Notes: a model not told the origin generated them from the sequence alone. A stretch of DNA of 64,000 bases from an uncultured cyanobacterium (GCA_937922745.1 CALAJO010000035.1:410-64409); one strand, 5' to 3'. Shown: positions 14,476-63,286, counted from the stretch's first letter. Made by a program: numbers and translations.

Positions 14476-16179
14476 TTAGGACGGCTGCATTTTTGCAGCA
14501 AAAGCAGGCGGCATGGGATAGAACGCCCTGTTAACGGGAACCGCCGGATTAAGCCAGGGCTGGCTTAATGGTTGCATTGGAATACGAAACACCGGCTGCG
14601 GAGTTGGCTTTGCCTCCGGTGGTGGTTGTTGGCGCTTTTTTCGTTTTACTTGCCACTCGGTCCACTTAATGGCCAGGTAGGGTTCGGCGATGCCTGTGAG
14701 GAAGAGCGATAAGGCCAGGCTTCCCGCGCTGATGAGGATAAATTTGCCAAGGGTGCCCGCATAAGTGGAAAGCGGTTTGGGCAGCAGTTTCTCAATTTCA
14801 ATACGGCGCTTCAGGATGCTGCCGCCATTGCCGCTGGGCTTCATCATATTTTTATCTACCAAGCCGGCAATAAAGCGTTTGGCCAACGGGGTCATCAGGA
14901 TCCACAGGCCCCAGCCCAGGAAGGAGTCCACCATGCGCTCGCGATACTCAATCTCGCTGCGGGCCGCAGTAAGCCGGGAGAAGATGAGAAACGCAAAACA
15001 CGACGCCATCTGTTGCGGCGTCGTGAATGGTAGGCCTTTTCCAAACTGCATCATAGAGCCCAGGCGTTTGAGGAAGTTTTTGGAGAAAGGATTGTTCAAC
15101 GCGTTGCGCCAATCCCCAAGCGAGAGCTTCACCGCATCGAATATGCCGAATGCAAACGGCAAGGGAATCAGCGCGCCCAGCAGGGGGCCGATCTTCCCTT
15201 CCTTCAACGATTGCGTGAGATAAGGGAAAAATTTCTCGGCGGCGTTTTTAGGCTTGGTTTCCGCTTCCTGCTTTTCCCTTAATCCCATTTCGCCGGGATA
15301 CATGGTTGTCCCATCCAATTTTCGGGTAATAAAGGTGTTGATATAGGGGACGGCCAGTGTCGCCGCCATGGCAAACCCTAAGCCAATCGGCAGACGCCAT
15401 TTGTTGACCTTCAAGGTTTCCGTAATGCTGTTGATGGCGCGTGTATTCCAGTTGCCGGCCTTGCCGGAACGCTTGCGCATAAACTGCACAAACCTGGTGG
15501 TATCGTCCAGCAGGTCATCCAATTGCACCGTGTGTTTCAACTGCTTGAACGAAACCACTTTGTCCAGTGTTTGCCGGTTGGGATTCAATAGTTTGGCAAT
15601 CTGTACGGCGGCATCCCCATTGCTCAGAGCGTTTTTGGCCTTCGGCGCCTGGTTCGCCAATCGGGTCATAATCTGGGCGATGGCCGGGCTGTGCTTCCTG
15701 GAAACGGTGTTGCTCAGGTTATTGATAAATGCGGCTTCATCCGGGCTTTGTTTCGCAACGGCCTTAAAAAATTCCATGGTTTCGTTACTGGTAAAGTGGT
15801 TGGCAAAGTTGGGCTTGCGGAACCGACTGAGTAGCGACGCCAGGCCGAAGGCCACTAATCCGCCGGACACATTATCCGTGAGGATCGACATCACTTCCCG
15901 AAATAAGCGCTCGCGGGCGGCGGACCAGTTGAGTTGTTTCTCCTGCACGCGGTCTTCCGGCTTGATGAAATATTGCCGGAACAGATCCATGCCAGTTCGT
16001 AGCAGCCCAAAGCCGCCCAAGTCCTCCAGAAACATCTCGCGCACCCTGTCCGCCTGGATCCATGATAATTTGCTGTCGATAGCGCCAATAGCAGCGGGTG
16101 ACATAAAGCCTTTGAACCGGGCAGCCTGCTGCACCGGCCTGTTGGGGATATTTTGTTGTACCGGGTTGAGGGTCGTCAT
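14476..16179 (-). CDS. Orphan multi-pass membrane protein with RFKG leader, downstream of a His-type attenuator
   Basis: 567 aa ORF with several hydrophobic segments, a Q/N/P-rich leader ending AARFKG and a Pro-rich tail; no family recognised. Confidence 0.85.
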   Translation of the reverse strand: MTTLNPVQQNIPNRPVQQAARFKGFMSPAAIGAIDSKLSWIQADRVREMFLEDLGGFGLLRTGMDLFRQYFIKPEDRVQEKQLNWSAARERLFREVMSILTDNVSGGLVAFGLASLLSRFRKPNFANHFTSNETMEFFKAVAKQSPDEAAFINNLSNTVSRKHSPAIAQIMTRLANQAPKAKNALSNGDAAVQIAKLLNPNRQTLDKVVSFKQLKHTVQLDDLLDDTTRFVQFMRKRSGKAGNWNTRAINSITETLKVNKWRLPIGLGFAMAATLAVPYINTFITRKLDGTTMYPGEMGLREKQEAETKPKNAAEKFFPYLTQSLKEGKIGPLLGALIPLPFAFGIFDAVKLSLGDWRNALNNPFSKNFLKRLGSMMQFGKGLPFTTPQQMASCFAFLIFSRLTAARSEIEYRERMVDSFLGWGLWILMTPLAKRFIAGLVDKNMMKPSGNGGSILKRRIEIEKLLPKPLSTYAGTLGKFILISAGSLALSLFLTGIAEPYLAIKWTEWQVKRKKRQQPPPEAKPTPQPVFRIPMQPLSQPWLNPAVPVNRAFYPMPPAFAAKMQPS

Positions 16180-16191
16180 TTTTCTCGCATC

Positions 16192-16330
16192 CTGTAAATT
16201 TACCCAATCAGAAAAGCCACCGTTTGATTCGGGAGAATGACGGTGGCTTCTGATTGGTCTTTACAGATTTTTTTAAAAAAGCAGCAACGGGCCCGTCATC
16301 TCCAACAAATGGTTGTGGTGATGATGGTGC
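16192..16330 (-). promoter_or_regulatory. Attenuator: protector, antiterminator and terminator hairpins
   Basis: Minus strand: terminator AAGCCACCGT(16249-40)/ACGGTGGCTT(16223-14) then TTCTGATT. GGAGATGACGG(16303-16293) can alternatively pair with CCGTCATTCTCC(16243-32). The His-codon segment CATCACCACAA can pair with TTGTTGGAGATG. Confidence 0.8.
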
Positions 16331-16362
16331 AGATGATTCAGGTTGTTGCGTCTGTTTTTCAT
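16273..16362 (-). CDS. Histidine-rich leader peptide MKNRRNNLNHLHHHHHNHLLEMTGPLLLF
   Basis: Hand-translated 29 aa ORF below the track cutoff; 7 His in 9 codons; no SD; ATG 6 nt after a promoter-like element (leaderless). Confidence 0.8.
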   Translation of the reverse strand: MKNRRNNLNHLHHHHHNHLLEMTGPLLLF

Positions 16363-16368
16363 ACTGTT

Positions 16369-62108: not shown

Positions 62109-62183
62109 TAACGGCAAAACCGGGTATAAAAAGGATACCGCCCTCAACAATGACGGCTATAGTATTAAAGAGGCACCCCGCTG

Positions 62184-62477
62184 ATGAGGAATCCTTATTT
62201 GGTTAAGCCACAAACCGCCCTAGCCGAAAAGATTGTCTTCTGGCTGTTAATGGCCTCTGTTGCGCTGGCTTGCTTTTTCATCATTATCGTGGCCTCCAGT
62301 TATAACCAAAGCGAAGTGAGCAGCCGATATGCCCGCCCCTTCGAGGAGCGGCAGGCACTGTACAAACAACGCATGGCGCAAAAGCAGGCGGAGTCACCGA
62401 ACAAACCCATTCGCTCACACGGCATGCGGGAAGCCGAAATCCAGAAACGCGAAGGAAACCATTACTCGACTTATTAA
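62184..62477 (+). CDS. Small single-TM hypothetical protein
   Basis: GAGG RBS; hydrophobic segment IVFWLLMASVALACFFIIIVA. Confidence 0.65.
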   Translation: MRNPYLVKPQTALAEKIVFWLLMASVALACFFIIIVASSYNQSEVSSRYARPFEERQALYKQRMAQKQAESPNKPIRSHGMREAEIQKREGNHYSTY

Positions 62478-62509
62478 TCACGAAAGCATCTATGTGACGC
62501 TTTCACTAT

Positions 62510-63286
62510 CTATGTAAGTTGCGAAAGGCGTTGAATCGCCATGCTTGCCAAGCCTTGCATATAGGACGAACCAGTAAAATCTTCGAAACGGCGATGCGCT
62601 CCTGCTCTATGCGCCAAGGAAATTCGGTGGGGGTTTCCGATAGAAACTGTCATCGTATCCGTACGCGAGCCCAATTGATAAGTAATTTGCAGTTGAGAGC
62701 CTGGATCCAGGTTCCGCTGTAGTGGCTCCACAGTGACACCGTGGTCATAATCAAAGTTAAAACCTACCTGTGCATTTCCACCTTTAAATTGTCCTGTACA
62801 TACACCGATTAAGGATTCGGCTAAACCGCCTTCCTCCTTGTTAGGGGCTCGATGCTTTAGCAGGACTGCATTCAGTTGGTTAACTGTGTAATCGACTTGG
62901 GATTGAAAGCGACTATCGTCCGATAAGTTAACTGTGTCTTGCGAATACCATTGTGATTTACCGGTTATTTCGTGCTGTCCAGGCTTTCCAACACGTATCG
63001 AGATTTCATCGTCAATCGTCGGTAATGTCGCATCTATTTTCAAAGTGGAGCCCTCGCCAACTAAGCCTTGTTGTAAATTCGCAGCCAAAACCGTTGCTTT
63101 TCCAACAGGGCTTGTGTCAAAAACAAAAAAGGCTCTACCATCCTTAATAGAAATACTATTGGTATTGTGCTTGGCAATCCTACCCAATGATTGTCTTAAA
63201 GAGTTCTCTGCACTCCCTCTAAAGCGGGCTTGCTGTTGCTTAGCAGGCAAGTTAACCCGAACGTTGTTAACTCCATATAATCTCAT
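62510..63286 (-). CDS. Orphan protein with ARFRG leader and internal duplication
   Basis: GGAG RBS before MRLYGVNNVRVNLPAKQQQARFRG; promoter-like motif at 63332-63359. Confidence 0.78.
   Translation of the reverse strand: MRLYGVNNVRVNLPAKQQQARFRGSAENSLRQSLGRIAKHNTNSISIKDGRAFFVFDTSPVGKATVLAANLQQGLVGEGSTLKIDATLPTIDDEISIRVGKPGQHEITGKSQWYSQDTVNLSDDSRFQSQVDYTVNQLNAVLLKHRAPNKEEGGLAESLIGVCTGQFKGGNAQVGFNFDYDHGVTVEPLQRNLDPGSQLQITYQLGSRTDTMTVSIGNPHRISLAHRAGAHRRFEDFTGSSYMQGLASMAIQRLSQLT

Follow-up and report, generated by a model that had tools for sequence, protein, structure and literature searches.

The window analysed here (64,000 nucleotides; contig C35:410-64409 of genome G000) belongs to a metagenome-assembled genome of the order Vampirovibrionales (3.16 Mb, 167 contigs, 52% GC, 92% complete), and the subject of this study is a short N-terminal leader ending in R-F-[G/S/A], hereafter the tag, that is found on proteins encoded in the window and elsewhere in the genome. 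A first-pass annotation had listed 14 such sites in the window, on what it took to be unrelated proteins, and had proposed a lineage-specific signal for secretion, processing or organelle targeting. Eight of the 14 are strict matches (28278 RFS, 33415 RFG, 40079 RFS, 47682 RFG, 55072 RFS, 55701 RFA, 56318 RFA and 57123/57072 RFG). Two more fit in part, as R-F-[K/R]-G (16179 RFKG and 63286 RFRG), whereas the remaining four are loose (26626 N-F-R-A, 31889 R-F-T, 40245 S-F-G and 40992 R-M-G). Most carriers are indeed unrelated, but those at 55072, 55701 and 56318 are tandem paralogs that fall into one BLAST cluster. Pfam identifies two of the window carriers: one is ClpP-like, and the other is a GT5/GT1 glycogen-synthase-like protein (hereafter GT5-like). 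An Rfam scan of the window gave 0 matches.

Genes were called with a simple program of our own that combines dicodon log-odds, Shine-Dalgarno (SD)-like sites and start-codon weighting, which yielded 3001 genes and 87% coding. The genome clearly makes use of SD-like sites, as GGAG lies upstream of 20% of starts versus 4% of internal start codons. Tripeptides seen at least eight times were counted in residues 2-45 relative to the rest of the protein, using the 2516 proteins of at least 100 amino acids. The motif stands out both in this genome-wide count and against shuffled N-termini, a control that the first-pass annotation had named. RFG is the most enriched N-terminal tripeptide of G000 (90 observed, 23.2 expected, p = 5e-26), RFS (40 versus 16.6) and RFA (37 versus 20.5) are also in excess, and VRF, TRF and PRF are likewise high. 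When N-termini were shuffled 200 times, RFG appeared in 14.9 ± 3.7 proteins (maximum 24) versus 90 observed, and RF[GSA] in 50.2 ± 6.6 (maximum 70) versus 166 observed. Because the observed counts exceed the shuffled ones to this extent, the excess is estimated at ~100-115 tagged proteins; ~100-130 G000 proteins carry M-x(2-45)-[V/A/P/I/T]-R-F-[G/S/A]. Among the 1643 proteins with an ATG start and an SD match of at least four bases, RFG is found 58 times versus 16.7 expected. RFG density is 11 per 1000 proteins in residues 1-10 and drops to ~1-3 past residue 70, and the motif may lie anywhere between residue 3 and ~48.

Paralogy was ruled out as the cause of the shared motif by an all-against-all BLAST comparison within G000 (E ≤ 1e-3), in which 143 of the 194 proteins with RF[GSA] in their first 48 residues are singletons. 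A filtered set of 146 tagged proteins was defined by RF[GSA] in the leader, at most two acidic leader residues and no hydrophobic stretch; within G000, 109 of these match no other protein, and members of the set lie on 81 contigs. The motif is encoded by all six arginine codons, both phenylalanine codons and, at its third position, 13 different ones. This diversity rules out a DNA-level repeat and argues for selection at the protein level.

In the filtered set, 109 of 146 proteins have V, A, P, I, T or L immediately ahead of Arg; Arg itself does not rank among the eight residues most often seen at this position. Gly fills the third motif position in 77 proteins, Ser in 41 and Ala in 28, and the residue that follows the motif is A, S or G in 70. 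Leaders have a median length of 14 residues (range 2-45; 92 of 146 are below 19), and some consist merely of M-x-x ahead of RFG, their start being fixed by the promoter-like box described below. The first-pass description of the leader as poor in acidic residues, rich in polar ones and devoid of a hydrophobic core proved accurate. Asp and Glu make up 6.1% of leader residues versus 11.7% in protein bodies; P, Q, S and N are enriched, and D, E, G and L are depleted. A 10-residue window resembling an h-region (mean Kyte-Doolittle value of at least 2.2) is present in 12 of 174 motif proteins versus 477 of 2342 others. The start M[RKQHN][IVL] is found in 38 of 148 tagged proteins versus 155 of 2460 others, and I or V occupies position 3 in 30% of tagged proteins versus 12%. 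By eye, D-[S/T]-hydrophobic often precedes the motif in longer leaders. A rule of two motif copies per leader was rejected, since 23 cases were seen and a Poisson model predicts 24.5.

The tag is likewise distinct from Sec, Tat and prepilin signals, in agreement with the first-pass annotation. The scarcity of h-region-like windows in tagged proteins does not fit Sec signal peptides, in which a basic n-region precedes a hydrophobic h-region of ~7-15 residues. Tat signals carry a twin arginine in S/T-R-R-x-F-L-K ahead of an h-region and are not matched either, as the residue before Arg is mostly V/A/P/I/T/L, Phe directly follows Arg and no h-region is present. Prepilins are cut at a Gly that precedes Phe, with ~20 hydrophobic residues following; tagged proteins read R-F-G and lack such a stretch, whereas true pilin-like genes in this genome read ...QGFSLVEVL (e.g. 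window 16915-17460, minus strand). Leader disorder was modelled for one protein, the ClpP-like one. In this model, which was built on five orthologs (mean predicted local distance difference test score, pLDDT, 62.7), residues 1-36 including the motif have pLDDT <50 and the fold begins at ~residue 40.

Orthologs across genera keep Phe and a small residue right ahead of the folded domain, although the leader itself cannot be aligned. G000 is the sole species of its genus, and its family (f1) holds four further genera in the genome collection used; the order also includes families f2 (genomes of ~2 Mb) and f3. Five ClpP-like orthologs from f1 and f3, at 30-38% identity, read V-R-F-G, L-R-F-G, I-H-F-S, V-K-F-G and L-R-F-G, with Phe invariant, and all five have an SD-like site before the leader ATG. 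Eight of nine GT5-like N-termini keep hydrophobic-x-F-[S/A/G], in which x is R, H, Q or T, followed after 8-12 residues by the conserved stretch KNGLW-TVER; the exception is an f2 copy without a leader, and the motif is present in one f2 genome. As the first-pass annotation had noted, the recognisable domain begins shortly after the motif in both proteins. For the 567-residue orphan encoded at 14476-16179, 16 of 17 full-length homologs (public assemblies, metagenomic; 27-51% identity) keep x-F-[G/S/A/K/Q] before the conserved domain. In the alignment F22 does not vary, while leader length ranges from 1 to ~48 residues. Loss of the motif among orthologs had been named in advance as a result that would count against a real signal, and the motif is retained in all three families. 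Housekeeping proteins with a chance RF[GSA] mostly do not keep it in relatives. These comparisons support selection on the tag, which is conserved while the leader diverges.

The 567-residue family was found in 1/1 f1, 11/14 f3 and 5/17 f2 genomes; among the 151 genomes searched, those outside the order gave weak partial matches only, which came from 4 of the 32 genomes in one family. Motif statistics for relatives were obtained from samples of 200-600 kb per genome. RFG is again the top tripeptide in G001, from another f1 genus (200 kb; 12 versus 1.7 expected, p = 3e-7), where RFS occurs 7 times versus 1.4. The f3 genome G020 (400 kb) has RFG 8 times versus 4.0 expected and includes clear leader-type examples. 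Enrichment of the tag is restricted to part of the Vampirovibrionales, and the lineage specificity suggested by the first-pass annotation holds in this form for the sampled genomes. It is extremely improbable that the tag is no real feature, produced by chance, shared ancestry, wrong starts or a DNA-level repeat. Four of the 14 listed items misfit even R-F-[G/S/A/K/R], three window items are paralogs and ~50 RF[GSA] N-termini are expected by chance, all of which such a reading could cite, but it is contradicted by the enrichment, the shuffles, the singletons, the codon diversity, the evidence for starts, the conservation in orthologs and the replication in G001.

Tagged genes also share an upstream sequence. 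In a test of k-mer enrichment within 150 nucleotides upstream, GCAATTT precedes 30 of 146 filtered genes versus 87 of 2705 others (p = 2e-14). Alignment extends this to a box reading GGCAATTT, ~8 nucleotides, often TTGAG, 3-4 nucleotides and then TTT[T/G]ATT, which begins ~55-75 nucleotides before the ATG. A simple box pattern has 152 genome sites, whereas a reversed/complemented null gives 23. Seventy-three genes lie behind it: 26 of the 146 tagged ones and 47 of the 2855 remaining (odds ratio 12.9, p = 5e-17). Nine box sites lie in the window, seven of which precede open reading frames (ORFs) with an RF-type motif or a listed loose variant, including the loose items at 26626 and 31889; 7 distinct box sites compare with 0.84 expected. 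The leader starts appear to be real, because SD-like sites precede the ClpP-like ATGs and leader ATGs have the box ~55-75 nucleotides upstream. The box at 55113-55140 falls inside a longer ORF, which favours the start at 55072. The strict box is present in other genomes as well, but only 1 of 20 RF[GSA] genes sampled from G001 and 0 of 17 from G020 have it upstream; looser versions were seen by eye. The common upstream box indicates that the tagged genes form a co-regulated set, and many of them look like one regulon.

Table 1. Tag leaders, box sites and the second type III core set. Positions refer to the window unless a contig is named.
Feature	Coordinates	Strand	Evidence or remark
Leader and motif, residues 1-24 (...AARFKG), of 567-residue orphan 14476-16179	16108..16179	-	Homologs keep F
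Leader and motif, residues 1-45 (...VIRFS), of GT5/GT1 glycogen-synthase-like 28278-30248	28278..28412	+	Pfam, orthologs
Leader and motif, residues 1-33 (...SVRFG), of ClpP-like 32429-33415	33317..33415	-	Pfam, orthologs, model
Short leader MDSNLRFS of ORF 39519-40079	40056..40079	-	Translation
Leader ending V-R-M-G-S (Met for Phe) of 40992-41903	40992..41090	+	Box-like sequence and SD upstream of ATG, by eye
Leader and motif (...QVARFA, RFA at residues 32-34) of 45429-45809; additional to the 14 listed sites	45429..45530	+	
Leader and motif (...SSQNRFG) of 47221-47682	47614..47682	-	
Leader and motif (MMPLSAVRFS) of 54515-55072	55043..55072	-	
Leader and motif (...KPSLPRFA) of 55390-55701	55645..55701	-	
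Leader and motif (...KPPLPRFA) of truncated 53-residue paralog 56157-56318	56262..56318	-	
Leader and motif (MPASRTCQTRFG) of 56416-57072, alternative start 57123	57037..57072	-	
Leader ending A-R-F-R-G (basic residue before Gly) of 62510-63286	63215..63286	-	
Second-flavour box	1809-1837	+	
Box 62 nucleotides upstream of ORF 26626-26991	26564..26589	+	
Box 56 nucleotides upstream of 29-codon ORF at 31889 (MIMQIRFT...)	31833..31859	+	Probably a broken gene
Box upstream of 42667-43383	43396..43424	-	Second flavour; protein without RF motif
Box 74 nucleotides upstream of 45429	45355..45383	+	
Box 58 nucleotides upstream of 47682	47713..47740	-	
Box 68 nucleotides upstream of 55072	55113..55140	-	
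Box 64 nucleotides upstream of 55701	55740..55765	-	
Box 62 nucleotides upstream of 56318	56355..56380	-	
Second type III core set (set 2) loci, G000	C157:14141-20033, C153:2-3732, C26:38564-39646, C90:47445-48812, C126:454-2853		
Set 2 loci in relatives	G020 C2:117-127.5 kb; G001 C32:10-19.5 kb		

Note that our gene caller made no gene of 26626-26991 or of 39519-40124, and the leader at 40056..40079 is less certain for this reason. Small tagged paralogs form a tandem array at 54515-57123 (minus strand), in which the truncated copy 56157-56318 is adjoined by an ORF (55778-56191) that continues the C-terminal part of the family, which suggests a broken copy. At 31889-32313 (plus strand), the 29-codon ORF and the one after it (31957-32313) lie in different frames, which probably reflects a frameshift in a tagged gene or an error of assembly.

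Most carriers have neither a paralog nor a Pfam family, and they are short (median 173.5 amino acids versus 248). Among 38 large carriers scanned, 31 have no Pfam match at E ≤ 0.001, and the remainder match FHA and RamC_N, kinase (weakly), pentapeptide repeats, DUF4112, SAM hydroxide adenosyltransferase and NTP-transferase. An M29 peptidase elsewhere in G000 is also tagged, as is a deformylase-like paralog whose first ~45 residues are absent from relatives in two other genomes. Two paralogs of the NTP-transferase (ADP-glucose-pyrophosphorylase-like) type, at window 45898-47214 (plus strand) and C6:40890-42221 (minus strand), have N-terminal extensions of ~125 residues. RFG stands at residue 44 in one of them, and the copy in the window reads V-R-F-F-Q-G near residue 60. 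Together with the tagged GT5-like protein, these paralogs indicate tagged enzymes of glycogen/starch type.

We consider that the R-F-[G/S/A] leader is probably a sorting or processing tag of a co-regulated, effector-like protein set. The proposed tag would consist of Met, 2-45 disordered residues and [V/A/P/I/T]-[R, less often K/H/Q]-F-[G/S/A], placed directly before the folded part. A protein machine would read it as a sorting signal independent of Sec and Tat. The F-[G/S/A] junction would be the probable recognition site and perhaps a cleavage site, with an aromatic residue at P1 and a small residue at P1', and the tagged proteins would constitute an exported, effector-like repertoire.

Export machines were searched for by family. 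PF03135 (VirB4) was found in 0 of 5 f1 genomes including G000; VirB4 genes occur in two species of genus g20 in family f3. PF02534 (VirD4), TssC (PF05943) of type VI secretion, whose effectors bear markers such as MIX, and the C39 peptidase (PF03412) were not found in the 92% complete G000, and a phage-type sheath was found in neither G000 nor the four other f1 genomes searched. Contractile injection, type VI and type IV systems and a C39 exporter were therefore rejected as routes, their components not having been found in G000. The signal of type IV substrates is usually C-terminal. The only one-step machines found in G000 are two full flagellar-type type III core sets (two each of FliF, FliP, FlhB, FlhA and the ATPase, and a second FliN-like gene). 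Set 1 sits with flgBC-fliEFGHI and fliPQR-flhBA. Set 2 comprises a FliF-like and a FliH-like gene, flhA2, fliPQR2, flhB2, a second ATPase, a FliN-like gene and four rod-like genes. A small sigma gene beside flhB2 is one candidate for the factor that binds the box. No second hook gene was found in G000, and no flagellin gene lies within the set 2 clusters read. A tagged M29 peptidase gene lies near flhA2, and in G020 tagged genes flank the set 2 cluster on both sides. G000 also has two secretins, one of which sits with GspE- and GspF-like genes and is flanked on both sides by tagged genes. Because tagged genes adjoin this cluster and pilin genes as well as set 2, their neighbourhood does not discriminate between machines. 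The pilin-like genes concerned (G-F-[S/T]-L leader) lie at window 16915-17460 (minus strand), G000 C128:3420-5294 (minus strand) and G020 C2:109853-110260 (plus strand). The first-pass annotation had proposed to test for co-occurrence with secretion machinery; no machine could be tied to the motif, and two FlhA-family genes are present in 31 of 31 Vampirovibrionales genomes searched.

It is possible, but on the whole unlikely, that the tag is the export signal of set 2, acting as a hook-less flagellar-type type III apparatus. Elimination of the other machines, the hook-less gene content, the tagged neighbours and the N-terminal composition speak for this. The sequence features usually associated with injectisome type III signals are present: few acidic residues, many polar residues, I/V at position 3 and disorder. 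Flagellar early subunits, according to PMC8983047, carry an N-terminal hydrophobic signal and an FlhB-docking gate recognition motif, F-x-x-x-hydrophobic, that are at least 19-30 residues apart. The tag is similar in having a hydrophobic residue near the N-terminus, a spacer and a Phe-centred motif. It differs from this rule, since the median leader is 14 residues with 92 of 146 below 19, and F+4 is hydrophobic in 43 of 146 (29%) versus a background of 33%; these figures do not support a gate-recognition-like motif. Set 2 is also present in all 31 genomes, including G005 and G024, in whose samples the tag is not enriched, and its genes lack the shared box. The upstream regions of flagellar, second type III and secretin-cluster genes all rank below 250 of 2956.

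These last points also weigh against the tag as a sorting or processing signal of an effector-like set, as do the following. By chance alone, ~50-60 of the 166-194 RF[GSA] proteins are expected, and the gene calls and starts come from a simple caller of our own. The 567-residue family is order-wide, with a single match in most genomes that have it, and in this looks closer to a conserved component than to a rapidly evolving effector. RFG occurs 3 times versus 3.2 expected in the 400 kb sample of G024 (f3, genus g20), which perhaps uses an [R/H]-F-A-G variant, and 0 times versus 3.6 expected in the 600 kb sample of G005 (f2). An alternative N-terminal motif was sought in G005 and rejected, the enriched tripeptides having no consistent pattern by eye. 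In protein g1841 (341 amino acids), the RFG at residue 43 comes ahead of R-R-R-F-L-Q, a hydrophobic stretch and Cys, i.e. a Tat-like lipoprotein signal. Unless its start has been miscalled, a Tat signal can thus stand behind the tag, which would misfit a one-step route.

A use of the motif inside the cell was considered as well. An endopeptidase could cut F-[G/S/A], or R-F so as to expose a destabilising Phe, and thereby activate the co-regulated set or time its destruction with no export at all. An invariant aromatic residue followed by a small one at a domain boundary is a typical cleavage-site pattern, the free leader length within the 567-residue family is as expected of a discarded propeptide, and the lack of an export machine tied to the tagged set agrees with it. 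We nevertheless judge such a maturation or turnover site rather improbable: it leaves the biased leader composition, the M-[basic or polar]-[I/V/L] start and the carriers (orphans and effector-type enzyme paralogs) unexplained, and no candidate peptidase was found.

Organelle targeting, which the first-pass annotation had also raised, is unlikely as a general explanation, because most leaders are too short. Known transit peptides are ~20-80 residues long, whereas many tagged proteins read M-x-x-RFG with promoter-supported starts. Mimicry of the plastid or mitochondrial targeting peptides that an algal host uses, with R-F-[S/A/G] resembling a processing-peptidase site with Arg at -2, is considered very unlikely. 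The few acidic and many hydroxylated and polar residues would suit it, as would the glycogen/starch-type enzymes among the carriers and the presence of a known Chlorella predator in the order (PMC4451040). Against this, the leaders are not amphipathic but rich in P, Q and N, export from the bacterium would have to come first, and G024, whose genus we take by inference to be Vampirovibrio, is unenriched in 400 kb.

Turning back to the tag as a sorting or processing signal, it works like known effector-marker motifs and is a member of no family tested. Signals of injectisome type III systems occupy a disordered stretch of the first ~25 residues that has few acidic residues, is rich in Ser and polar residues and has an aliphatic residue at position 3/4. 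As with type III effector signals (Hrp-type, Pseudomonas syringae), the tag lies at the extreme N-terminus of unrelated, fast-evolving, co-regulated proteins behind a promoter box, within a disordered and acid-poor segment. Those signals have no fixed motif, whereas the core here is a strict F-[G/S/A]; moreover, G000 has two flagellar-type sets and no injectisome was identified in it, and the box is not on the sets. Class IB chaperone-binding motifs are comparable in being short, within the first ~50 residues of unrelated effectors and served by one shared reader, but their sequence pattern is another one, and no chaperone candidate was found here.

The PEXEL motif of Plasmodium and the RxLR motif of oomycetes are also short, N-terminal and Arg-containing, and mark large, lineage-specific, mostly orphan effector repertoires, in which they act as processing sites. 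They come after an endoplasmic reticulum signal peptide in eukaryotes, whereas the signal peptide is absent here and the organism is bacterial. Double-glycine leaders of C39 peptidase-ABC exporters, which are common in cyanobacteria, likewise lack a hydrophobic core and have a small residue at the junction. They have Gly at -2 and a conserved helical leader, in contrast to Phe at -2 here, and the lack of a C39 hit in G000 is also at odds with such a leader. Prp, of Firmicutes and phages, removes an N-terminal extension of L27 and some phage capsid proteins after Phe and before a small residue. Its substrates resemble tagged proteins in bearing a short extension that ends in Phe followed by A/S/G on unrelated proteins cut by one dedicated protease; they are few and have another upstream consensus, in contrast to the orphan regulon here, and no search aimed at Prp was made.

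A bolder version, which we regard as doubtful, likens the R-F-G leader to PEXEL/RxLR: it would be their bacterial counterpart, a host-targeting tag that is cleaved and that defines all effectors injected by predatory or parasitic Vampirovibrionales. Delivery would be through set 2, taken to lack a hook and filament of its own, as an injectisome-like machine that evolved independently within Cyanobacteriota. If so, the tagged glycogen/starch enzymes would act inside algal prey. More generally, tags on glycogen-synthase-like and ADP-glucose-pyrophosphorylase-like enzymes may bear on how bacteria tap algal carbon stores. The short sequence rule and promoter-like box would allow a candidate effector repertoire to be read directly from genomes of a barely studied uncultured group, the non-photosynthetic sister lineage of cyanobacteria that includes the Chlorella predator Vampirovibrio, and would provide a handle on an export or processing pathway. 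In the literature searched, we found no account of a second type III core set in Vampirovibrionales and no description of the R-F-G leader, nor one in the available part of the Vampirovibrio genome paper (PMC4451040).

A TatC-like gene, recognised by eye from its translation, lies at window 27319-28056 (minus strand) between two ORFs of the first-pass annotation; no functional link was found. The box also exists in a second flavour (GCAATT, ~13 nucleotides, TTGTTTTTATT), which genome-wide precedes proteins without the R-F-G tag and is present in G001, G020 and G005 as well. The proteins behind it are mostly orphans, many with G/N/Q/S/Y-rich N-termini and without a signal peptide. Others include 5'-nucleotidase-like, small adenylate/guanylate cyclase, methyltransferase-TPR, halogenase-like and protease-inhibitor-peptide-like proteins, and a 624-residue pilin-like protein whose box ranks 14 of 2956 upstream regions. 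With the box upstream, the gene at G000 C91:7721-8371 (minus strand) may encode a ribosomal peptide precursor; its Pfam match is to Inhibitor_I10, a family of serine endopeptidase inhibitor peptides (E = 2e-16).

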